DNA of 64,000 bases, from assembly GCA_965224705.1 (NCBI GenBank), contig OZ245056.1, forward strand, positions 2,496,001 to 2,560,000. The letters are read 5' to 3'. Within the stretch, counting starts at the first letter, position 1; each line of letters opens with the position of its first letter. Origin of the DNA: Spirochaetaceae bacterium. GTDB taxonomy: Bacteria; Spirochaetota; Spirochaetia; DSM-2461. Below, piece by piece: positions 9,943 to 64,000 of the stretch. Below the pieces are notes generated by a model. That model was not told the origin of the DNA and did no database searches. It worked only from the letters and a program-made list of their open reading frames with translations. Both the position numbers and the translations under genes were made by a program.

Positions 9943-10229
9943 GAGCCTGTCGGATTTACGTCTCACGGATCGATTTTTGCCCTTCTCTCCAGAAGCAAGC
10001 CTCCTGCTTGCTTCTGGAGAGCCGCCTTCGTTCGTTTTTCGCCGCCATCCGTGGCGGCTTTTCCTCGCTATCGCTCGGCACTCTCTCAGGATGCGAGTTT
10101 ATAGACTCGCATACCCTGCTGCTGTGTTGCCAAAATACTCACGTAGCCCAGCTACGCTCCGTTTTTGTCGCCTTGCATCAGGAAGAAATCATCAAAAATC
10201 GCCTCGAAGCCTTAAAATCCGACAGACTC
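9943..10229 (+). mobile_element. MITE family A, expanded copy (287 bp) carrying an extra hairpin module
   Basis: TIRs GAGCCTGTCGGA/TCCGACAGACTC; core near-identical to 38264-38424; ~125-bp hairpin-rich insert. Confidence 0.85.
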
Positions 10230-10244
10230 CTGGAGAGAATACAA

Positions 10245-30228: not shown

Positions 30229-31823
30229 TGAAGGGAATTGCGATATTCCTGTCATCTTTGTCAGTATTGATTTCAGTCATATTCACGCAAACAGGATGTG
30301 TCAGTACTGTAGAAAATGATGGTCCCTTACAGGAAGCGGACAACAATTCGAATTCGAGTGAACAACCACCTTTTCCTGAACCACAGAATTCCAATGAATC
30401 CCTGACTACCCCCCCGACATCCGAAACAGTTATGAATGATCCCCCGGCAGATGAAACAGCCATGGTGGCCCCTTCGACAGATGAAACTACCCTGACCCCC
30501 CCCCCGGCAGCCGAAACAGTTATGGATGCTCCCCCAGTAGGTGAAACAGCCATGGATCCCCCTTCGACAGCCGAAACAGCTATGGATGATCCCCCGGCAG
30601 ATGAAACAGCCATGGATGCTCCCCCAGTAGGTGAAACAGCCATGGTGGCCCCTTCGACAGATGAAACTACCCTGACTCCCCCTCCGGCAGCCGAAACAGC
30701 TATGGATGATCCCCCGGCAGATGAAACTACCCTGACTGCCCCTCCAGCAGCCGAAACAGCCATGAGTGATCCCCCAGCATCTGAAACAGCCATGGATACT
30801 CTTCCGTCAGTTGAAACAGTTATGGATGCTCTCCCAGTAGGTGAAACAGCCATGGATCCCCCTTCGACAGCCGAAACAACTATGGATGATCCCCCAGCAG
30901 ATGAAACTGCCCTGACTGCCCCTCCAGCAGCCGAAACAACTATGGATGATCCCCCAGCAGATGAAACTACCCTGACTGCCCCTCCAGCAGCCGAAACAGC
31001 CATGGCGGCCCCCCCGGTAGCCGAAACAGCTATGAGTGATCCCCCAGCAGATGAAACCATCATGGATGCCCCTTCGGCAGCCGTGAAACATGATTCAGGT
31101 GATTTTTCTCCGACTCTGGAAGGTTGGGGCTGGGTATTTCGCTCTGATCTCTCCACTCCAGGCAATTGGCGTTTTTTGAATCGTGAGCGTACAGGAAATG
31201 CAACGAAATTCAATTTTCATTTTGATGAAGAAGGAACCTGGAGCTTCGTATTTGATCAGCAAAATCTATCTGAGGGAGGCCGTAGACGCGAGATCCGCAA
31301 GTTGAGATACAGTAAAGATCTGGGTGTTGAGATCATTGACAGTGGTGAATTGGATTCACAGGTTCTACAGACTGAACAGTATACGGAAGTGCAGAATGAC
31401 CTGGAATCAGTTCCGGAAGAATCTGCTGCTGTGGACAGTCGAACTACTGAAGCTTTGATTCAAGAAGCAGTTAGAAATGGTTCGGCCGTGGAAATTGCTT
31501 CATTGCTGCCGCAATACATGGAAAATGACGTCGACCCTGATGTCCTGGATTCTGTTGTCAATACTCTGGATGATGCTGACGGTTATGAAGAAGAAGTGTT
31601 CAGTGCACTGATATTACTCTCAGATTTCAGTTCCCATCAAAAAAATGCGGAATGGCTGTTTCGGCTGGCATCATTCCTTGCAAAACCTGGAAAAAAAAGA
31701 AGTCTTTCTCAAGCTGTTGTTTTTTATCAGAAAGTTATTGATTCATGGCCGCTTTCCAGGTGGAGGGAACTGGCTGAAGAAAGGCTCATCTGGTTGAAAC
31801 GTCATTACTTCCGATCACAGTAA
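30225..31823 (+). CDS. Predicted lipoprotein with Pro/Ala/Thr/acidic decapeptide repeats and C-terminal TPR
   Basis: Signal peptide ending QTGC; repeat block; C-terminal WLFRLA...FYQKVIDSWP TPR-like motif. Confidence 0.8.
   Translation: MMKGIAIFLSSLSVLISVIFTQTGCVSTVENDGPLQEADNNSNSSEQPPFPEPQNSNESLTTPPTSETVMNDPPADETAMVAPSTDETTLTPPPAAETVMDAPPVGETAMDPPSTAETAMDDPPADETAMDAPPVGETAMVAPSTDETTLTPPPAAETAMDDPPADETTLTAPPAAETAMSDPPASETAMDTLPSVETVMDALPVGETAMDPPSTAETTMDDPPADETALTAPPAAETTMDDPPADETTLTAPPAAETAMAAPPVAETAMSDPPADETIMDAPSAAVKHDSGDFSPTLEGWGWVFRSDLSTPGNWRFLNRERTGNATKFNFHFDEEGTWSFVFDQQNLSEGGRRREIRKLRYSKDLGVEIIDSGELDSQVLQTEQYTEVQNDLESVPEESAAVDSRTTEALIQEAVRNGSAVEIASLLPQYMENDVDPDVLDSVVNTLDDADGYEEEVFSALILLSDFSSHQKNAEWLFRLASFLAKPGKKRSLSQAVVFYQKVIDSWPLSRWRELAEERLIWLKRHYFRSQ
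30402..31091 (+). repeat. Tandem array of ~23 x 30-bp units (consensus peptide MDDPPADETA)
   Basis: Periodic GAAAC(A/T) and CCCCC motifs every 30 nt; C10 homopolymer at 30496-30505. Confidence 0.92.
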
Positions 31824-38242: not shown

Positions 38243-38263
38243 TTCATCCAGGCGGTATTCTGG

Positions 38264-38424
38264 GAGTCTGTCGGACTTACGCCTCACGGCTCGATTTTTG
38301 CCCTTTTTACCTGCTGCTGTGTTGCCAAAATACTCACGTAGCCCAGCTACGCTCCGTTTTTGTCGCCTTGCATCAGGAAAAAATCATCAAAAATCGCCTC
38401 GAAGTCTTAAAGTCCGACAGACTC
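38264..38424 (+). mobile_element. MITE family A, canonical 161-bp copy with CTGG target duplication
   Basis: CTGG|GAGTCTGTCGGACTT...AAGTCCGACAGACTC|CTGG. Confidence 0.9.
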
Positions 38425-38482
38425 CTGGGGAAGGGGTTCCCGGAAAACAGGCATGATGGAATCCGGTTTGAAACTCTTTCAG

Positions 38483-47020: not shown

Positions 47021-47812
47021 GTGAAATTTAAGTCCATATTCTGGATATATAACATAATTGTCATATTCGTGCTCCTATCATTCACTCTTATCTCCCTGTT
47101 TGTTTTTGGTTCAATCTACATAGTAGAATACTGGAGCAGGATGTGGGTTGTCACGGCCATCTTTGTCGTTTTAGTTGGACTACTTGATTACTACTTCATT
47201 CTTAATTGGAAACTCTTTGACTTAATGGAAAAAGAAGACTGGCCGGTACTTCTGGCATGGCTGGAGGATAAGATATACAGAAAAGGTAAAATAAAGAAGC
47301 ACTATGTCAACCTTCTGATCAATACGGCATTATCGGTATCCAATCTGGAATCAGTGAGGAAACTGGAAACTGAGATAAGGCACCGAAAAAAAGGATTACT
47401 CCCAAAAGTTGGGGTGTCATTGGGTATCCCCCTGCTGTTGAAACAGAATCACAGGGCCATATATGACTATTATACACAATTTGCGGAGGATGAAAAAACT
47501 TCTATGCGGGAATGGGCCCAATGGTGTCAGGCCTACGCTTCTGAAGATCCAATGTATGCTGTTCTTTTTGAGTTATTGAATAGCCAGGATCCATCTATAA
47601 GTTTACTATCCATGGATTTATTAGAGCAGAATTCGGGGGAACTGGATGAACAGGATATCAGGAAAATCGATGAATTCAAAAGAAGCATCCATTCAAAGTT
47701 AGCTGGTTCAAAGGGTGTCCGCATCCTGCAGGAATCCCGTGAAAGAAGTCTTATCGCCAATGTCATGTCTTCCCGGGTTGATACCGTGCGGGATAAACTC
47801 ATTAACCAGTGA
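47021..47812 (+). CDS. Membrane hypothetical protein
   Basis: SD AGGAG, GTG start; two N-terminal TM helices. Confidence 0.75.
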   Translation: MKFKSIFWIYNIIVIFVLLSFTLISLFVFGSIYIVEYWSRMWVVTAIFVVLVGLLDYYFILNWKLFDLMEKEDWPVLLAWLEDKIYRKGKIKKHYVNLLINTALSVSNLESVRKLETEIRHRKKGLLPKVGVSLGIPLLLKQNHRAIYDYYTQFAEDEKTSMREWAQWCQAYASEDPMYAVLFELLNSQDPSISLLSMDLLEQNSGELDEQDIRKIDEFKRSIHSKLAGSKGVRILQESRERSLIANVMSSRVDTVRDKLINQ

Positions 47813-47831
47813 ATTAAGGAGTTCTTGCCCT

Positions 47832-49337
47832 ATGAGTGTTCGTGTCCGTTATGCACCTTCGCCAACAGGCTTACAGCACATTGGCGGAATTCGTACTGCA
47901 TTGTTCAATTATTTTTTCGCACGGGTCAGTAAGGGGAAATTCATCCTGAGGGTGGAAGATACGGATCAGGAAAGAAGCACTCCGGAAGCCCTCAGCGACC
48001 TGTATTCCAATCTGGAATGGCTGGGTATTGATTTCGATGAGGGCCCCGGAAAAGAAGGGAATTGCGGTCCCTATATACAATCCCTCAGGAAGGAAATCTA
48101 CAGGGAAAAAGCGCAGCATCTGGTACAGATGGGAAAGGCCTATCCCTGTTTTTGTTCCTCTGAGCGCCTGAACCAGATCCGTGAGGAGCAAAAGAATTCA
48201 AAAACTGATATTGGTTATGATCGCAGATGTGAGAGTATTTCTCCGTCAGAAGCTGCCGCCCGCATGGCTTCCGGTGAGCCATATGTTCTCAGATTGAAAG
48301 TTCCCCGGGAGGGTAAAACAGAATTTGCAGACCTTTTGCTTGGCCGTATCAGCCGTAAGAACAAGGATATTAACCCTGATCCTGTTATTCTTAAATCGGA
48401 TGGATTTCCAACCTATCATCTGGCTAATGTCATTGATGATCACATGATGGGCATTACCCATATAATGCGTGCCCAGGAATGGATCCCTTCGGGTCCGCTG
48501 CATGTATTGCTCTACCAGGCATTCAGCTGGAATCTGCCTTTCTACTGCCACCTTCCCATGGTGATGGGAAAAGATGGGCAGAAACTCTCCAAGAGACATG
48601 GAGCAACAGCGGTTTCGGATTTCCGTGCCGCAGGCTACCTGCCCGAAGCCATCATCAATTACATTTCTCTTCTGGGTTGGAGTTATGATGATTCCCGTGA
48701 GTTTTTTACCAGAAACGAGCTTTGTGAATTGTTTTGTATTGAGAAAATCAATAAATCTCCAGCTATTTTCGACTACAGGAAGCTTGAGTGGTTTAATGGT
48801 CAGTATATTCGCAGAAAAGACCCGGAAACTTTAAAAACTGAGCTGAGATCCATATTGGTACAGGATGGAATAATATCCAATCCAATATCAGCTGAGGACA
48901 GGGACATCTTCGAGGGCGCATTCCCCATTGTCCGGGAACGGCTTAAAGTTCTTGGAGATGTATCATCCATGCTGAGATTTCTTTTTGATGACCCCGGAAC
49001 TGGCAATACTGAAGATGCCATACCGAAAAAAATGGATGGTTTGCAGACAGCCGCCGTACTGAGGGCTGGTATTATACTATTGGGCAATGCCCCGGAAGTT
49101 CCCCCTGTTGCCAACCAGACTGCGTGCCGAAAATGGGACGATGACCGGGAGAATGAATTCCGGGCAAAGGCCGATGAATCCGGATGGAAGTTCGGGGTAA
49201 TGATGCAGCCTCTGCGGCTGGCCGTTACGGCCAGCAAGGTCAGTCCCCCCCTGTTTCCGGCAATTCGACTTCTGGGAATTGAGGAATCCCTCCGGCGGGC
49301 AGAACGATTACTGAAGGAACTGGAGGGGACTCTTTAA
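47832..49337 (+). CDS. gltX: Glutamate--tRNA ligase
   Basis: RYAPSPTGLQHIGG (HIGH), KLSKRHG (KMSKS), VSPPLF. Confidence 0.96.
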   Translation: MSVRVRYAPSPTGLQHIGGIRTALFNYFFARVSKGKFILRVEDTDQERSTPEALSDLYSNLEWLGIDFDEGPGKEGNCGPYIQSLRKEIYREKAQHLVQMGKAYPCFCSSERLNQIREEQKNSKTDIGYDRRCESISPSEAAARMASGEPYVLRLKVPREGKTEFADLLLGRISRKNKDINPDPVILKSDGFPTYHLANVIDDHMMGITHIMRAQEWIPSGPLHVLLYQAFSWNLPFYCHLPMVMGKDGQKLSKRHGATAVSDFRAAGYLPEAIINYISLLGWSYDDSREFFTRNELCELFCIEKINKSPAIFDYRKLEWFNGQYIRRKDPETLKTELRSILVQDGIISNPISAEDRDIFEGAFPIVRERLKVLGDVSSMLRFLFDDPGTGNTEDAIPKKMDGLQTAAVLRAGIILLGNAPEVPPVANQTACRKWDDDRENEFRAKADESGWKFGVMMQPLRLAVTASKVSPPLFPAIRLLGIEESLRRAERLLKELEGTL

Positions 49338-49608
49338 GAGGAAGAAAAATCCAAACTAAATTCGGCTTTTCTTTCATTTTTGAGGTATTCTGCCACGAAA
49401 ATGCGGATGCATTCAGGCACCCGTGGGGGCTGTGTCAGGCCAAAGGCGAGTTCTGGCACAGCTCCTTTAGGAGGCCTCATCATTCTTCTACGGTTTAAAT
49501 CTCTGGTGATGGATCCGCCGGGTGGTGTGAAAGAATAATGCAGCCACACCATTGTCCTGGCTATTAACCTTGTTTCATATCTGGATACTCTCCAGCCAGG
49601 CTTTGATT

Positions 49609-50496
49609 TCAGTCTGACTCTATCCGTTTCAACCCATCTCGACTCATGACTAAACGGAATCTCTGAGTACTGTGATTCTGATTACCGAAACCTGTCAGGC
49701 AGATTACAAGGCTGAGGCTGTAGACGCGTTTGCTTTTCATTGCCCGTGGTTTTTCGTTCTCTGCAAATACTGATACCATCTTCTCTGGAGCATCCATACT
49801 TCGCAACAGTTCATCCAGTTTCAGGCGTACTATGTCCGTGACCGTATCCAGACGGATATGAAACTTTCTGAGTCTTTTATTGTTGATGACAATTTTTCGT
49901 CGGTAGTGAATCAGATCTTCCTCCGGATGAATATGCTGAAGAGGGCTTGTAATTGTTTGCCTTGCTCGCAAGACATCGCGAGGGGCATTTCTGGCCTTGA
50001 TAAAACGAACTCGACTGTTCACTCTTCCAGCCTTGTTTCCGGTAGCCTGGTCAGTCAGACGAATCCGTTCATCTGCAACAAGGCCAGGTGCGGTATGTAT
50101 CAGTACCTCCCTCAAAGACTCCTTAATGCGGTCTTTGAAAATGTATGAAACGACAATAGCTAAGATCCATGGAAGACTTTGTCCGGGGAGGTACCTATCT
50201 GCAATAATTGACACAGAAACAGCAAAGGTCATGGCAATTGCAGCTGCGATGCTGGCATAGAGTGGTGATCCTGTCTCCGACGCATATATGCACGCCAGAC
50301 TCCGTAATTCGTACAAAATCCGTTTTACATTAACATCATGCGGCAACAGACTGCTGTCAATTCCTTTCTGAATTCTGGAAAATGGACTGATTTCATACGA
50401 CGGATCAACAAGGTTCGACAGGGATATTGAGGGAACGCCGAATCGAGTCAGGCAGTTTATATCGGAGAAGAAACCGGAAACACCATCAAAATCATG
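49609..50496 (-). pseudogene. 5'-truncated membrane protein gene (probable pseudogene)
   Basis: Frame stays open upstream of the ORF-track start (DFDGVSGFFSDINCLTRFGVPSISLSNLVDP...) until an in-frame TGA at the island edge; no convincing start or SD. Confidence 0.55.
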
Positions 50497-50820
50497 TCAA
50501 AATTCTGGGGCAGCGAGTGGCTTGTGGAACCGCCGGAAGAATCACCTCCCGCGATTTCCCTTAATGAACTCTGTCAGAAGCTGCAGGAGAAATGTACCGA
50601 GGAAGGAGTGGAAAAGGATATAAACATCCATCAAAGCGCGAAAGCTCTCAAAATCCTTTTTCGGCACAGAGGCACAAAAGCCTATAATCTGAAATTTCTG
50701 CTGGAGGATATTTTTGGCAAAAACGCGCTTCACCTGGGATGGAGAATAACCCGCCTGGCCTGTCTGGCTGTTGATAACAATGGGGAAAACCCCATGAATT
50801 ACCTGAATCTCTGTCATTAA
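50494..50820 (+). CDS. Hypothetical ORF, probably the C-terminal remnant of an island gene
   Basis: 108 codons; ATG lies exactly at the junction with the truncated minus-strand gene, no SD; followed by a GC-rich hairpin. Confidence 0.4.
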   Translation: MSKFWGSEWLVEPPEESPPAISLNELCQKLQEKCTEEGVEKDINIHQSAKALKILFRHRGTKAYNLKFLLEDIFGKNALHLGWRITRLACLAVDNNGENPMNYLNLCH

Positions 50821-50944
50821 CATATCGGCGGCGGCCGGACTGCTTCAGGCTCCGCTGCCGCTCCGGCGGTTGAGAAGTGGATGCAGCGGATAATTTCGAG
50901 AATACATATTTTTATGAAAAAATAGAAATAAATATGAATAACCG

Positions 50945-50973
50945 TTGACCTTTCTCTGGGCTCATAGTATTTT
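50945..50973 (+). promoter_or_regulatory. Putative sigma70 promoter of the NLR-like gene
   Basis: TTGACC-17 nt-TATTTT preceded by an AT-rich UP-like tract; SD AAGGAG at 50983. Confidence 0.45.
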
Positions 50974-50994
50974 GTCTCTGCTAAGGAGAAAAAA

Positions 50995-53900
50995 ATGAAA
51001 TCCATAAGCAACGCCATTGACGAATTTCTTGCCCTGAATGAGCTCGGAAAAACCGATGCCAAAAACCTGAACAAGCTGATCGGGCTGCTGGAAGACGGAA
51101 AAGTGGCAACGGAAAGAGCCGTCCAGGCACTGTATGCCGACGCGAAAAATCCAGATGGCAGTTTCAAGAGCTTCATCATGAGGATCAGGGCGGCCATCAA
51201 GGTTACAGCGGACAATCAGAAAGACAAGCGGTTGAAGGAACGGTTGGAATCCATAAAGATAATCACCCATCAGAAAACCTCTTCCATGCCCGGCTGCATC
51301 AGTATTAAGGCCCACTCCGAACCGACCGGCCATCTGCCAGCGGCCAACCGGCAGTACCCGGATGAAAATTATGTTCAAAGCGAGGCATCCAGTGTGGATG
51401 GCAAGCCGCTCCGCAAGGGGGAATCAAAGCTGTTTCTCAGCTACTCCAATGAGAATGCCCGATTAGCCCACGACCTTAAAGACATGCTGGAACAGCAGAG
51501 TAAAGGCACCGAAAACCCTGTCCGTATTTGGTCCATGCTGGAACTGCTGCCGAACCAGAGTTTCATAGAACAGATCAGGGAGAAGCTGAATGAATGCGAT
51601 TTGGGCCTGGCCTGCCTGTCCCAGGCATTCCTCAATAGTCAATTCATAGCGGAGGAGGAAGTCCCTTTTCTACTGAACCACAATAAGATAATCCTGGTCG
51701 GACTGGATTCCCGTTGGGATGGCCGCTCAAAAACACCCTCAGAATTTTTTGATCTTGTGAAAAAGGGCTTTAACGAAAATATCCCCTACTGGAAAAAGAA
51801 TCTCTCGAAGTTATTAGGAATTCATGTATACCACCTGCGCGATACAGAGTGCGGTGCTTTTTGGGGACAATGTGTAAAGAAAACGCCCCAAGAGCAGTTT
51901 GTCGATGGTTTGATTGGGGATATTCGGAAAGTAATCAAACAGAAAAAAGAACGTGAAGAAAAACAGACCGAAGAATTAAAAAAGAACTGGGAAGTTGGAG
52001 ACCGGCGTTACCTTCCCAGGAACTATGTGGATACTGAAGTAAAAGCATTACTAATTCAAAGCCAAACAGAAGCATCCTCGGAAACGCAAAAACGGCACCA
52101 CGAACAGGATGACAAAGAGCCATCCAAACCAACCAGAGAATTGGTGCCCGACATGTTGAACTGGGCGGCCAACGGAAAGGAACCCGTTTACGCCATACTG
52201 GGCGACTACGGCATGGGCAAAACCTTTTCCTGCCGGATTTTCGCCCAGCGTCTGGATGAAGCGCACAAAAAAACGGCCTCCCTGCCGATTTCACTGTACA
52301 TGGATCTGCGTAAGGTACAGACCTTTGTTAAAGACAAGGGTATAGAACGCCTTCCGCGTCTGGACGAAATGATTGATATGATGCTTAAAAGTCATGGAGC
52401 TGAAGCCGATCCGAAGAGATTTATTGAAGACGCGAGACATGGCCGCGTTCTGCCCATATTCGACGGCCTGGATGAAAAGCTGGTCTACTACACCAGGGAC
52501 ATGCAGTACCAGTTTCTGAACGAACTGATGCGGGTGTTCCCGTTCGAAACAACACGGGACAAATCGAAGATCAAAGTCGTGATTTCCTGCCGGACGCATC
52601 ACTTTGAATCAATTGCCCAACAGTCCGTTTTCCTGCAGGGCCTTTACCGGGATGACAGCATGCGGGGCGACTTCCGGGCCATGGAAATACTGCCCCTGTC
52701 GGATGGAAAGATGCGCCAACTCCTGGAAAAAAGGCTGGGCCGGGATGCCACGTTCCAGGTGTGGGAATACATAGACCGTCAGGAATACCTGGCCGCCCTG
52801 GGCCGCCGTCCCCTTCTGCTCAGCAAACTGCCCGATATGCTCCCGTCCATCCAGTCCATGCAGTCAGAGGGAATTCCCGTCAATGCCGCCGTGTTCTATA
52901 AAGCCCTTATCGATGATGTACTGGCTCGGGATAATCCCAAACATGTCCTTAAAAACCGTCATAAGCACCGCCTTCTGCTGGATTTGGCCCTGTATTTCTG
53001 GGAGAAGGGAGAACAGAGCATGAACATAGACAATTTGAACGACTGGTACCAGGCATGGCTGCGCCGCGACCCGGACATGTTTGCCCAGTATCAGACAGAG
53101 GGCAGTGAACAACTGGAAAAAGACCTGCGCAACTCCACCCTGCTGCTCCGCTTCGGTGAAAAAGAATTTGGTTTTACCCACAGCTCCATGCAGGAATACT
53201 TACTGGCCCGGAAACTGCTTTCAGAATGGGGGCAAAACGGTTATTCCCTGGCCAAACCTGTTTCCCGTTTGACAGAGAAGTTCATTGGCGAAGCCCTCGT
53301 GTTGCTGGAGGACGGCGAACGGCGGAAACTGCGTGAACAGCTTGCTGTTTATGCCGCCAGGCCGGAAAAAACCGCCCACTCACCCCATCAGGATGCCCTG
53401 CTGCTCTGCGTAATCCATTCCGCGGCGGAAGCGGGACGGCCTTTTGAAGCCTTTGATGCCATCCATGTCTTTGGTGTCAATTTCTCCGGTGAACGGATTA
53501 GGGGCCTTCGTGCCCGGAAACTAACCCTGAACCGCTGTGAAATGCCGCTCTGCCGCTGGCAGGAAAGCAATATTGACAACCTGGAGTTGAACGAAACCAA
53601 CATCAACCAATCGGTGTGGGAGGAATGCCGGGTTGAGCAAGCGGCGGGAAATGCCCAGGGGCTGACCTGCGTCAACACAGTGGGGCGGATTGAGGGACTC
53701 TGCAAAAACGGAGGAGGCCGGATATATCCGCTGCCGGAGAAGGCCCCTGTGCCGCCCCCGCCGTACGCGGAGAATAATGTAACATGGGGTCATAACTATG
53801 AAATAAACGCGTTGTCATTCAGCCCCGATGGCCGCCTTCTGGCTTCCGCTTCCTCTGACGACACGGTGAGAATCTGGAGCGCGGAGGGCGAATGCCTGCG

Positions 53901-55719
53901 CGTCCTGGAGGGCCATTCCGATGGGGTTCATAGTGTGGACTTCAGCCCCGATGGCCGCCTTCTGGCTTCCGCTTCCTCTGACAACACGGTGAGAATCTGG
54001 AGCGCGGAGGGCGAATGCCTGCGCGTCCTGGAGGGCCATTCCGATGGGGTTCATAGTGTGGGCTTCAGCCCCGATGGCCGCCTTCTGGCTTCCGCTTCCT
54101 CTGACGACACGGTGAGAATCTGGAGCGCGGAGGGCGAATGCCTGCGCGTCCTGGAGGGCCATTCCGATTGGGTTCATAGTGTGGGCTTCAGCCCCGATGG
54201 CCGCCTTCTGGCTTCCGCTTCCTCTGACGACACGGTGAGAATCTGGAGCGCGGAGGGCGAATGCCTGCGCGTCCTGGAGGGCCATTCCGATTCGGTTTGG
54301 AGTGTGGGCTTCAGCCCCGATGGCCGCCTTCTGGCTTCCGCTTCCTCTGACGACACGGTGAGAATCTGGAGTGCGGAGGGCGAATGCCTGCGCGTCCTGG
54401 AGGGCCATTCCGATTCGATTAATAGTGTGGGCTTCAGCCCCGATGGCCGCCTTCTGGCTTCCGCTTCCTCTGACGACACGGTGAGAATCTGGAGCGCGGA
54501 GGGCGAATGCCTGCGCGTCCTGGAGGGCCATTTCCATTGGGTTCATAGTGTGGGCTTCAGCCCCGATGGCCGCCTTCTGGCTTCCGCTTCCTATGATCAC
54601 ACGGTGAGAATCTGGAGCGCGGAGGGCGAATGCCTGCGCGTCCTGGAGGGCCATTCCGATTGGGTTCATAGTGTGGGCTTCAGCCCCGATGGCCGCCTTC
54701 TGGCTTCCGCTTCCTCTGACAACACGGTGAGAATCTGGAGTGCGGAGGGCGAATGCCTGCACGTCCTGGAGGGCCATTTCCTTTCGGTTAATAGTGTGGG
54801 CTACAGCCCCGATGGCCGCCTTCTGGCTTCCGCTTCCTATGATCACACGGTGAGAATCTGGAGCGCGGAGGGCGAATGCCTGCGCGTCCTGGAGGGCCAT
54901 TCCGGTGGGGTTTGGAGTGTGGGCTTCAGCCCCGATGGCCGCCGTCTGGCTTCCGCTTCTTCTGTCAACATGGTGAGAATCTGGAGCGCGGAGGGCGAAT
55001 GCCTGCGCGTCCTGGAGGGCCATTCCGATGGGGTTCGGAGTGTGGGCTTCAGCCCCGATGGCCGCCTTCTGGCTTCCGCTTCCTATGACCACACGGTGAG
55101 AATCTGGAGCGCGGAGGGCGAATGCCTGCGCGTCCTGGAGGGCCATTCCGATTCGGTTATGAGTGTGGGCTTCAGCCCCGATGGCCGCCGTCTGGCTTCC
55201 GCTTCCTTTGATAAAACGGTGAGAATCTGGAGCGCGGAGGGCGAATGCCTGCGCGTCCTGGAGGGCCATTCCGGTGGGGTTATGAGTGTGGGCTTCAGCC
55301 CCGATGGCCGCCTTCTGGCTTCCGCTTCCGATGACAACACGGTGAGAATCTGGAGCGCGGAGGGCGAATGCCTGCGCGTCCTGGAGGGCCATTCCGATTC
55401 GGTTATGTGTGTGGGCTTCAGCCCCGATGGCCGCCTTCTGGCTTCCGGATCCCATGACGGAACGCATATTATCTGGTCCGTAGACCAGGGCCTTCCGCTC
55501 CGTATTATGAGCGCGCAAATAGACGGGCAGTGGTGGTCGGTGGAAATAGACGAAAACCGCCGTTACACCCGGATGCTGGGCACCGAACTGGCCTGGCAGC
55601 GGGTGTGGCTGCGGCATAAGGACGGTGTGGCTTCCCTGGATGCCTTTGACGGGTTTCGATTGGTGCCGTCACGACACTGCCTGAAAAATGATGCCAAAAC
55701 ACATCTGAATCGACCATGA
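50995..55719 (+). CDS. NLR-like STAND protein: N-domain + TIR + NACHT + pentapeptide-like region + 14 WD40 repeats
   Basis: TIR KLFLSYS...LSQAFLNSQFIAEEEVP; Walker A GDYGMGKT; Walker B IFDGLDE; ISCRT; RPLLL; FTHSSMQEYLLA; GH...FSPDG...W repeats. Confidence 0.92.
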   Translation: MKSISNAIDEFLALNELGKTDAKNLNKLIGLLEDGKVATERAVQALYADAKNPDGSFKSFIMRIRAAIKVTADNQKDKRLKERLESIKIITHQKTSSMPGCISIKAHSEPTGHLPAANRQYPDENYVQSEASSVDGKPLRKGESKLFLSYSNENARLAHDLKDMLEQQSKGTENPVRIWSMLELLPNQSFIEQIREKLNECDLGLACLSQAFLNSQFIAEEEVPFLLNHNKIILVGLDSRWDGRSKTPSEFFDLVKKGFNENIPYWKKNLSKLLGIHVYHLRDTECGAFWGQCVKKTPQEQFVDGLIGDIRKVIKQKKEREEKQTEELKKNWEVGDRRYLPRNYVDTEVKALLIQSQTEASSETQKRHHEQDDKEPSKPTRELVPDMLNWAANGKEPVYAILGDYGMGKTFSCRIFAQRLDEAHKKTASLPISLYMDLRKVQTFVKDKGIERLPRLDEMIDMMLKSHGAEADPKRFIEDARHGRVLPIFDGLDEKLVYYTRDMQYQFLNELMRVFPFETTRDKSKIKVVISCRTHHFESIAQQSVFLQGLYRDDSMRGDFRAMEILPLSDGKMRQLLEKRLGRDATFQVWEYIDRQEYLAALGRRPLLLSKLPDMLPSIQSMQSEGIPVNAAVFYKALIDDVLARDNPKHVLKNRHKHRLLLDLALYFWEKGEQSMNIDNLNDWYQAWLRRDPDMFAQYQTEGSEQLEKDLRNSTLLLRFGEKEFGFTHSSMQEYLLARKLLSEWGQNGYSLAKPVSRLTEKFIGEALVLLEDGERRKLREQLAVYAARPEKTAHSPHQDALLLCVIHSAAEAGRPFEAFDAIHVFGVNFSGERIRGLRARKLTLNRCEMPLCRWQESNIDNLELNETNINQSVWEECRVEQAAGNAQGLTCVNTVGRIEGLCKNGGGRIYPLPEKAPVPPPPYAENNVTWGHNYEINALSFSPDGRLLASASSDDTVRIWSAEGECLRVLEGHSDGVHSVDFSPDGRLLASASSDNTVRIWSAEGECLRVLEGHSDGVHSVGFSPDGRLLASASSDDTVRIWSAEGECLRVLEGHSDWVHSVGFSPDGRLLASASSDDTVRIWSAEGECLRVLEGHSDSVWSVGFSPDGRLLASASSDDTVRIWSAEGECLRVLEGHSDSINSVGFSPDGRLLASASSDDTVRIWSAEGECLRVLEGHFHWVHSVGFSPDGRLLASASYDHTVRIWSAEGECLRVLEGHSDWVHSVGFSPDGRLLASASSDNTVRIWSAEGECLHVLEGHFLSVNSVGYSPDGRLLASASYDHTVRIWSAEGECLRVLEGHSGGVWSVGFSPDGRRLASASSVNMVRIWSAEGECLRVLEGHSDGVRSVGFSPDGRLLASASYDHTVRIWSAEGECLRVLEGHSDSVMSVGFSPDGRRLASASFDKTVRIWSAEGECLRVLEGHSGGVMSVGFSPDGRLLASASDDNTVRIWSAEGECLRVLEGHSDSVMCVGFSPDGRLLASGSHDGTHIIWSVDQGLPLRIMSAQIDGQWWSVEIDENRRYTRMLGTELAWQRVWLRHKDGVASLDAFDGFRLVPSRHCLKNDAKTHLNRP
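53788..55479 (+). repeat. 14 tandem 123-bp WD40-encoding repeats of very high DNA identity
   Basis: GH codons at 53788, 53911 ... 55387 (period exactly 123 nt). Confidence 0.97.
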
Positions 55720-55858
55720 TTCCTAATCGCAGAATGAGATGCGATTGCCCCGAGGGAATAAAACAAGATACCTGTCTTTTCAAATAAAATCATCCTGCTT
55801 GCCCAAGCTGACTGAAAAATGCTACGTTAGTTCTCATTCTATAAGTAAGGATTAACCT

Positions 55859-62667: not shown

Positions 62668-62706
62668 TCAGATATTATTTTGTTAGCCTGATTTACAGGC
62701 TCCCAG

Positions 62707-62867
62707 GAGTCTGTCGGGTTTTAAGGCTTCGAGGCGATTTTTGATGATTTTTTCCTGATGCAAGGCGACAAAAACGGAGCGTAGCTGGGCTACGTGAGTA
62801 TTTTGGCAACACAGCAGCAGATAAAAAGGGCAAAAATCGAGCCGTGAGACGTAAATCCGACAGGCTC
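62707..62867 (-). mobile_element. MITE family A, full 161-bp copy
   Basis: Reverse complement is near-identical to 38264-38424; abuts the pbpC stop codon. Confidence 0.9.
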
Positions 62868-64000
62868 CTAAAGTTCCATGAGAACCGTCACACTCCGCTC
62901 CTGAGATAGGCCCTGGTCATCAAGCAGAATCAGATCATATTGACCGGGGGAAGGAGTCCATATCAGTGTTTCTTCCGGTTGGGTTTTTCCAAGAAAAATT
63001 CCATTGGCAAACCAGAATATCTCATTGACCTCTCCATCAACTGCTCCCATCAATGGAATTTTCCCGAAACGATCCAATTCGGGTCTGAGGATGTAGGTTG
63101 CCCTGGCGACGGGAGAAAGAATGGTTGGCTGAATCATCCTCCTGTCCGTATGGATTCCCTTATCTTCAAATGGGGGCGGTACGGGCCTGGGGATTCCTGC
63201 TTCCCGAAATAATTTGAGGAGATCAGAAGGCCATACCTCACGGACAATCATTTTTGTACCTGCTCCCTCAGTTCTCACTCTCAAACCTGTTTCTTCATCG
63301 ATCCAGAAAGGTCTGTGAATCCCGCACAGTTTAGCCGGTGAAATGCCGGGCATGAAAAGGGCCTGTTCCAGATGTTGGCAGTACTTTCCAGGAATGGATC
63401 CGGATATGGCACAGACCTCAATAATGCTTACCCCGGGCACAAATTTCAGACGGAAATTCTTAACTCTGCTTTCGAGGAGTTTGGTCATATCAAAAAGAAA
63501 GGGAGCCGCAATACTTCTTCCCAGAAAGGCCGGGTTTCCCTCTCCACTGAAATTCCCAATCCAGACAGCCATCACATAGGGGCCATGGAGACCAATGCTC
63601 CAGGCATCCTTGAATCCGATGGAAGTTCCCGTTTTCCAGGCCGCAGGTACTTCTTTACCGACAGGATTCCAACTCTCAGATATGGGGAATTCTTTTTCAG
63701 GGGAAGGATTCCGTTCCAGAATAAGCCGTATGACTCGAGATGCCTGGGGGCTCATTATATTTTTTTCAGGAAAAGATTTAAGTACTCGATCCCTTCCAAT
63801 TAAAATGTCTTTGAGTCTTCCTTCGTTTCCTATGGCAGCATAGAGTCCTGCCAGTTCAAGCATGGTTAATTCGGCCGTTCCCAAAACGATGGAAAGTCCA
63901 TAATGATTCTTCTCCTTCAGTTCTCCCACTTCTGCCAGGGCAAGAAGGTCGTGGAGGTCTAAATCGTGGAGATTGGAATTGAGTTCCACAGCGGGGATAT
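62868..64000 (-). CDS. pbpC: Penicillin-binding protein 1C, C-terminal part (5' end outside the window)
   Basis: YGLSIVLG, WKTGTS.G.KDAW, C-terminal BiPBP_C-like domain. Confidence 0.9.
   Translation of the reverse strand, partial: IPAVELNSNLHDLDLHDLLALAEVGELKEKNHYGLSIVLGTAELTMLELAGLYAAIGNEGRLKDILIGRDRVLKSFPEKNIMSPQASRVIRLILERNPSPEKEFPISESWNPVGKEVPAAWKTGTSIGFKDAWSIGLHGPYVMAVWIGNFSGEGNPAFLGRSIAAPFLFDMTKLLESRVKNFRLKFVPGVSIIEVCAISGSIPGKYCQHLEQALFMPGISPAKLCGIHRPFWIDEETGLRVRTEGAGTKMIVREVWPSDLLKLFREAGIPRPVPPPFEDKGIHTDRRMIQPTILSPVARATYILRPELDRFGKIPLMGAVDGEVNEIFWFANGIFLGKTQPEETLIWTPSPGQYDLILLDDQGLSQERSVTVLMEL

Follow-up and report, generated by a model that had tools for sequence, protein, structure and literature searches.

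The stretch of DNA analysed here (the window; 64,000 nucleotides of contig OZ245056.1, from the Spirochaetaceae bacterium assembly GCA_965224705.1) carries a gene that ends in a long array of WD40 units, and the question it raises is how such units can be almost identical over most of their length and yet differ at a few short patches. A first-pass annotation had read the array as a sensor diversified by recombination. We report the architecture of the gene, homogenisation of the unit framework after a gene duplication, recombination among the units and an excess of amino-acid replacements at six top-face codons. The result is an evolutionary one; the design itself is already known.

Domain organisation of the gene

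The gene is intact and its predicted features are as follows (window coordinates):

50995 to 55719, plus strand: whole gene, 1574 aa, with NNH6, TIR, NACHT, pentapeptide-like region, 14 WD40 units and tail (ORF list; Pfam by segment)
51034 to 51204, plus strand: NNH6 (aa 14-70; PF22737, E = 2.2e-6, 28.2 bits against a cut-off of 27; helical in the model)
51433 to 51759, plus strand: TIR domain (aa 147-255; PF13676 TIR_2, E = 3.4e-9, above cut-off)
52183 to 53238, plus strand: NACHT module (PF05729, E = 8.7e-5, below its cut-off; motifs; fold match)
52201 to 52224 and 52456 to 52476, plus strand: Walker A and Walker B, respectively (invariant or almost so in a 14-row alignment)
53452 to 53673, plus strand: short pentapeptide-like beta region ahead of the propellers (weak match to PF13599, E = 5e-4, below cut-off; run of short strands in the model)
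53788 to 55479, plus strand: 14 WD40 units of 123 bp, WRAP-like, probably forming two 7-bladed propellers (2YMU match and structure model)
53917 to 53931, plus strand: 5' variable patch, unit codons 3-7 (given for unit 2; recurs each 123 bp), d-a loop, R1-2 and R1
53977 to 53985, plus strand: 3' variable patch, unit codons 23-25 (given for unit 2; recurs each 123 bp), b-c loop, D-1 and D+1
55480 to 55719, plus strand: non-repeat C-terminal tail, common to a paralogue (73% at the amino acid level)

Glu222 of the TIR domain (51658-51660) is invariant in all 14 aligned homologues and likely represents the catalytic residue. A structure model of aa 1-931 (pLDDT 76.6) gave NLRC4, NOD2 and NLRP3 as the best Foldseek matches, with E-values of about 1e-12. 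As in bacterial NACHT NLR-related proteins, there is a NACHT NTPase with intact Walker A and B motifs, an N-terminal effector domain (TIR_2 above cut-off, with the invariant Glu222) and a C-terminal superstructure-forming repeat sensor, i.e. the 14 WD40 units. Judged by its predicted domains, the gene product is a bacterial NLR of the type NNH6-TIR-NACHT-pentapeptide-WD40 with a double β-propeller end. No NCBIfam or PADLOC family scored above cut-off for the protein (PADLOC returned just weak TIR-level matches), the TIR domain had no significant match among PDB sequences, and a promoter scan upstream of the gene gave two sites, which is chance level.

Layout of the repeat array

From position 53788 the array comprises 14 in-frame units, each of exactly 41 codons, and unit 14 stays in register to approximately 55479. 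Tandem Repeats Finder reports a period of 123, 13.3 copies, 94% matches and 0% indels. For units 2-13 the mean nucleotide identity is 93.7% (range 87.0-99.2%; none of the 66 pairs identical), and 22 of the 123 columns vary, with silent variation in just three framework codons; the earlier description of units that are nearly identical even at synonymous sites is thus borne out. All 13 patch readings listed for units 2-14 in the first-pass annotation match the sequence, and so do the five states reported for one codon (codon 7: CAT, TGG, AAT, CGG and ATG, with AAC in unit 1) and the occurrence of YDH with three different 5' patches, YDH being encoded by TAT GAT CAC in units 7 and 9 and by TAT GAC CAC in unit 11.

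Among 13 units there are ten distinct 5' patches, eight distinct 3' patches and 13 distinct pairs. Independent assortment of the two patches, as proposed earlier, agrees with the number of distinct pairs and with a linkage that does not reach significance (Mantel rho 0.21, p = 0.088), although with 13 units this test is weak. Moreover, 12 of the 22 variable columns fall within six codons, unit codons 3, 4, 5, 7, 23 and 25, referred to as hot codons, which account for 18 of the 123 columns (expected 3.2; hypergeometric p = 5e-7; units 2-13). These codons were picked from papers on fungal genes, yet after the alignment had been viewed, and because of this the family-wide scan described below is the unbiased test.

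Location of the variable codons on the propeller

The closest solved relative of the array is the 14-blade WRAP domain 2YMU (sequence E = 7e-197; rank 1 in Foldseek). In the array model (pLDDT 76.8) codons 3-5 lie ahead of strand a, codon 7 is the second residue of that strand, and codons 23-25 lie between strands b and c. According to the accessible part of Wu 2012 (PMC3419727), the d-a and b-c loops constitute the top face, and R1-2, R1 and D-1 are binding hotspots; in our model unit codons 5, 7 and 23 are placed at R1-2, R1 and D-1. The variable codons therefore map to the top face (d-a loop, start of strand a and b-c loop), as had been claimed, with surface exposure judged from the secondary structure of the model and the definition of the top face in Wu 2012.

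The same annotation had equated these positions with the positively selected sites of HET-E. In the text available to us, the strongly selected HET-E codons 7, 9, 25 and 27 flank the conserved codons 8 and 26 (Paoletti 2007, PMC1805685), and by spacing they correspond to unit codons 5, 7, 23 and 25 around V6 and D24. Likewise, the fungal positions used more recently are 10, 11, 12, 14, 30, 32 and 39 (Ament-Velásquez 2025, PMC12222747, accessible part), of which 10-12, 14, 30 and 32 correspond to unit codons 3-5, 7, 23 and 25. The positions are hence equivalent by spacing.

Selection at six codons

For units 2-13 the pairwise pN is 0.371 at the six hot codons vs 0.017 in the framework, and pS is 0.039 and 0.033, respectively. 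Expressed as minimum changes, there are 17.5 replacements over 15 hot sites, 7 over 78 framework sites and 3.5 silent changes over 30 sites, which corresponds to an omega of about 10 for the hot codons and 0.77 for the framework (minimum counts; binomial 17/21, p = 1e-5), the silent rate in this counting method resting on 3.5 changes. The per-codon dN/dS comparison that had been suggested as a check consequently reveals an excess of amino-acid change at the six codons (pN 0.37 vs pS 0.03). Diversifying selection at top-face codons, as in HNWD-type HIC NLRs, is thus found by counting on few silent changes.

Concerted evolution and recombination among units

A full-length paralogue (G000:C1:551130-555869, minus strand; locus L002) is located between the type II-B genes cas9-cas1-cas4, directly upstream of them, and a SNF2/ResIII helicase gene. 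It has 75% DNA identity to the window gene outside the array and carries 14 units, one of which has a one-codon deletion. At silent sites the two genes diverge by 0.48 outside the arrays and their arrays by 0.43, compared to 0.033 within the window array and 0.22 within that of the paralogue. In framework trees the units group by gene (96, 99 and 100; the first, the last and one deleted unit left out), the nearest neighbour is in the unit's own gene for 23 of 23 units, and eight framework differences are fixed between the paralogues. The proposal of concerted evolution is accordingly supported, and concerted evolution within the gene together with a repeat identity above 80% (93.7% mean) is as expected for HNWD-type genes. 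The two arrays have been homogenised separately, and homogenisation is therefore later than the gene duplication.

Unit exchange between the window gene and its paralogue, of the kind found in HNWD-type genes, was not detected, the framework being fully separated. The paralogues have 11 of 22 hot codons in common, three of which are Trp or Met codons; we considered exchange as their source and rejected it on account of the separated framework, and we read the shared codons as probable convergence or old retention. A homologue of the paralogue, P0002, has a tandem duplication just ahead of the TIR domain and a 14-unit array that is differently homogenised.

Within the window array, the best tree found for the 13 informative columns requires 33 steps vs a minimum of 18, and column-shuffled data require 32-37 (12 shuffles). 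None of 240 simulations without recombination (eight settings, matched for informative columns) reached these 15 extra steps, the maximum being 14; the simulations were run on simple mutation models, and strong parallel selection could add homoplasy. No tree fits the units, and the earlier claim of recombination among them is upheld. The suggested site of exchange, crossover in the constant segment, proved too simple: incompatible column pairs exist both between the patches and within the 5' patch (codon 5 vs codon 7, 5-7 bp apart), and therefore either tracts are short or sites recur, which a picture of two cassettes does not capture. No linkage across unit boundaries was detected (rho -0.01).

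The alternative that survives best, and which we nevertheless find rather unlikely, is that one blade was amplified once and recently, as in the WRAP model of Pereira and Lupas, and that the copies then changed by point mutation and selection, with no further exchange among them. The framework is almost devoid of silent change and its omega of 0.77 fits young mutations; also, the closest structure is a WRAP domain, and such arrays are read as independent amplifications in what is accessible of Pereira and Lupas 2022. However, the states of codon 7 are up to three bases apart while framework pS is 0.03, the homoplasy is above that of all 240 simulations, and both informative silent markers take two steps on the best tree. 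Furthermore, similarity does not fall off between units that are farther apart (rho 0.13, p = 0.17), and the terminal half-units and the tail remain specific to the position in the gene. The probability that six independent silent events hit three or fewer of 30 sites is 0.003, which argues against a star.

Arrays across the family

We scanned 164 loci, comprising the window gene, its paralogue, two genes of genome G001 and, from sets of 109 and 114 confirmed loci, the best 80 of each. At least five in-register WD cores were present in 58 of these, and 37 of the 58 had a median identity of at least 80%. Hot pN exceeds framework pS in 36 of these 37 conserved arrays and framework pN is below framework pS in all 37, in a scan where one pair is duplicate, the loci are kin and units altered at four anchor residues are dropped by the search pattern. 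With the duplicate removed, the hot replacement rate is above the silent rate in 36 of 36 arrays. The codon-level pattern is consequently family-wide (36/37 conserved arrays). In arrays with less than 80% identity the hot/silent ratio is about 1 or lower, which counts against our best explanation.

Repeat number and order vary among the homologues, mostly on short contigs. Seven homologues that are 98-100% identical outside the array have 4, 4, 4, 4, 5, 6 and 14 units, where the short arrays likely represent collapse because most of them come from short contigs. Homologues P0039 and P0032 differ in hot residues in the first three units only, and between two Cystobacter fuscus genomes framework differences extend through almost all units. 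L142 and L147, alleles of a distant homologue and the closest such pair (L142/L147), are 98.6% identical outside the array, and the silent divergence of their array is nine times that of the flank (0.23 vs 0.026), showing unit turnover. In this pair hot pN (0.214) does not exceed array pS (0.225-0.232), which speaks against selection, but it is four times framework pN.

This last comparison bears on a further possibility, that recombination is real but a by-product of the tandem repeats, the six sites varying as free surface loops that are not selected for recognition. Hot pN equal to array pS in L142/L147 and frequent gain and loss of units in arrays of the family are in line with it. Since relaxed constraint caps pN at pS, hot pN above pS speaks against free loops, and in the window array it exceeds pS roughly tenfold, even when pS is taken from the hot codons themselves (0.039); the bottom-face and outer-strand surface residues are invariant across units, and the replacement excess recurs in the 36 non-duplicate arrays. 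We consider the by-product reading quite unlikely.

The TIR-NACHT-WD40 family is present in 3 of 14 genomes of the genus, or 3 of the 6 near-complete ones. The next named homologues are from Bathymodiolus gill symbionts and other phyla, and the distribution for this reason points to lateral spread. A first scan of genome contigs with a single protein as query found 0 of 20. Four tandem near-identical genes of about 370 aa are located downstream of the homologue in genome G009 (L015:13804-18000).

Integrity of the assembly and search for a diversifying element

It is very improbable that the array is an assembly artefact or a strain chimera. The samples do contain several diverged family members, and short-read assemblies of such arrays are described as unreliable in the accessible part of Ament-Velásquez 2025 (PMC12222747), but the gene is on one 3.0-Mb contig without N, the frame is open through all 14 units with none identical, 14 units are present also in the paralogue, the G009 gene, P0002 and 2YMU, and the variation is confined to functional codons. 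Contigs of sequencing run X1, possibly the source sample, match the gene without a difference up to position 53847, through its unique part and into the middle of unit 1. A second allele was not found among contigs of four of six runs compared over 47700-53976; run X6 has almost no sequence, and runs X3 and X5 are without close cover of the gene, which alone proves nothing.

Donor WD40 cassettes elsewhere in the genome, which the first-pass annotation had suggested looking for, were not found: blastn (word size 7), tblastn and k-mer scans of the assembly detected neither a donor cassette nor a template of a diversity-generating retroelement (DGR), and the unit is present in the array and the paralogue only. 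Of the 668 array 20-mers, 10 have matches outside the array, in the paralogue and at a single unrelated site.

That a DGR writes the variable codons is barely credible and largely refuted: the genome does have an avd gene above the NCBIfam cut-off and DGR-like reverse-transcriptase pieces, but there is no template repeat by blastn or k-mer scans, variation is not confined to template adenines (A occurs in 6 of 12 hot variable columns and is the majority in three, and 14 A columns are invariant), and a multicopy 170-bp element interrupts the reverse transcriptase next to avd. A search for adenine-biased template/variable pairs near either reverse-transcriptase piece gave nothing beyond a single 52-bp match in which 5 of the 8 mismatches are at A. 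NLR-like sensors of multicellular bacteria, with a variable sensor on a STAND protein, are reportedly diversified by DGRs. Such sensors (Doré 2024) have adenine-specific, template-directed variation and a lectin-fold target, none of which fits the window gene.

Proposed mechanism

We think it probable that the gene encodes an NLR-type defence receptor in which recombination between units and selection renew the propeller surface, ligand binding being relayed through NACHT to a TIR response. In favour of a defence role we count the cas9-cas1-cas4 genes next to the paralogue, the presence of the family in 3 of 14 genomes of the genus and the variable insertion site; the weak PADLOC matches and the lack of a known defence gene adjoining the window gene count against our reading. 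In STAND proteins, ligand binding generally leads the NACHT module to oligomerise and switches on the TIR NADase. Unequal crossover of the RecA type, together with short tracts of gene conversion between near-identical units, would keep the framework uniform and at the same time re-deal the surface codons among the blades, where selection would hold different residues; each re-deal would then alter the binding surface of two propellers, and no dedicated diversifying machine would be required. By analogy with STAND/NLR biology, a phage protein or a tampered host protein would bind and open the NACHT module, the opened protein would oligomerise and bring its TIR domains together to cleave NAD+, with arrest or death of the infected cell as the outcome. 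This would be a single-gene system in which six residues per blade suffice to read the sensor surface.

A broader reading, which we put forward tentatively and would not bet on, is that TIR-NACHT-WD40 genes across many bacterial phyla form an anticipatory, RecA-driven class of variable receptors, in which sub-blade conversion re-deals six ligand-facing residues over 14 blades and gives population-level adaptive-like immunity without retroelement or donor cassettes. If so, the re-dealing would be fast enough for cells of one host-associated population to carry different sensor surfaces.

Relation to known systems

The design has been proven in fungi, and earlier reports of it exist for bacteria; the window gene is accordingly a clear new example rather than a new kind of system. 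With the HNWD/NWD genes of Podospora anserina (HET-E, HET-D and HET-R) it has in common NACHT, highly conserved WD40 repeats, concerted evolution and a double propeller, and the selected codons map by spacing to unit codons 3-5, 7, 23 and 25. It differs in being bacterial, in its 41-aa units, in having TIR and NNH6 in place of HET, and in that no unit exchange between paralogues was detected. It appears to work like HNWD, and it is not an HNWD gene since TIR and NNH6 stand where the HET effector would be.

As in WRAP domains, 14 near-identical 41-aa WD40 blades end a STAND protein, and in Npun_R6612 of Nostoc punctiforme (PDB 2YMU) variation is seen at the same R1 site (R, W and N). In the window gene the TIR domain is fused instead of being on a partner gene, and more sites vary. 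The accessible text of Hu 2017 (PMC5587647) describes diversity at hotspot sites in highly repetitive WD40 proteins, and that of Pereira and Lupas 2022 (PMC9218822) describes WRAP arrays as recent amplifications tied to immunity; as far as these texts go, the arrays are read as single recent amplifications, whereas the homoplasy in the window array shows exchange between blades.

The tripartite effector-NACHT-repeat design is shared with bNACHT proteins (Kibby, bioRxiv 2022.07.19.500537) and with defence STANDs that have Apaf-1-like propeller sensors (Nature 2026, PMC13581612), and the parts of these papers available list TIR, NNH, pentapeptide and beta-propeller among the domains of such bacterial receptors. 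In those same parts no member with a WD40 sensor is tested against phage, and diversification at the repeat level is not analysed. Repeats of the WD and TPR type with 80-90% identity are described in bacterial NLRs, to which the fungal regime is proposed to apply (Dyrka 2020 preprint; Ament-Velásquez and Saupe 2026, PMC13449251; both in part). The latter places such NLRs in all domains and its Fig. 8 legend lists NNH6 and TIR as N-terminal domains. On these accessible parts, the idea for bacterial NLRs dates from 2020 and its survey from 2026, both at the protein level, and no codon-level or recombination test for bacteria was found in them. Our literature search, with subscription papers mostly outside it, likewise found no such test of bacterial WD40 NLR repeats. 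The available text of PMC13449251 names it an open question whether the highly conserved repeats of NLRs outside fungi share the fungal mechanism of diversification and gain from it. At the level of codons and of recombination, the window gene, its paralogue and the 37 conserved arrays provide evidence for the fungal regime in bacteria, with the same six positions involved.

Insertion site and other features of the genome

The gene belongs to an insertion that differs between congeneric genomes:

49338 to 55858, no strand: variable insertion site between gltX and glyS, containing the gene and two ORFs without known family (congeneric comparison)

Of 5 congeneric genomes searched, 3 have their gltX and glyS matches separated by about 80-120 bp and 2 have other DNA in between. 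A 9.2-kb contig of run X3 (a mollusc metagenome) is 98% identical at gltX and departs from the window sequence at 50486. The two ORFs in the same insertion, 50494-50820 (plus strand) and 49609-50346 (minus strand), have no Pfam, NCBIfam or PADLOC family, and relatives of the former, at 85% identity, occur in runs X1, X3 and X5. No known defence gene adjoins the window gene.

The DGR remnant (G000:C1:2211222-2212750; locus L003) has an intact avd and a reverse transcriptase split by the 170-bp element, and its neighbours look by eye like caspase-family and lectin-fold targets; a second reverse-transcriptase fragment is found at C1:526863-527534. The 170-bp element has terminal inverted repeats and is MITE-like, with 138 hits genome-wide (99 of at least 150 bp; about 100 full copies), three of them in the window at 38263-38429, 62700-62870 and 10115-10235. 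Three similar 426-aa reverse-transcriptase frames (G000:C1:332290, 1071852 and 1652954), one of them with an internal TAG, are probably group II introns. The window also has a degenerate 30/60/90-bp tandem repeat at 30409-31083, unrelated to the array. Three NACHT genes without WD40 repeats (G000:C1:1531129-1533453, 1168225-1170576 and 1802277-1805294) include one with an Mrr-type nuclease. Finally, two genes (G000:C1:528315-531110 and 1430962-1433931) encode WD40 proteins whose N-termini look by eye like lipoprotein signals and whose units have 40-53% protein identity to the array.
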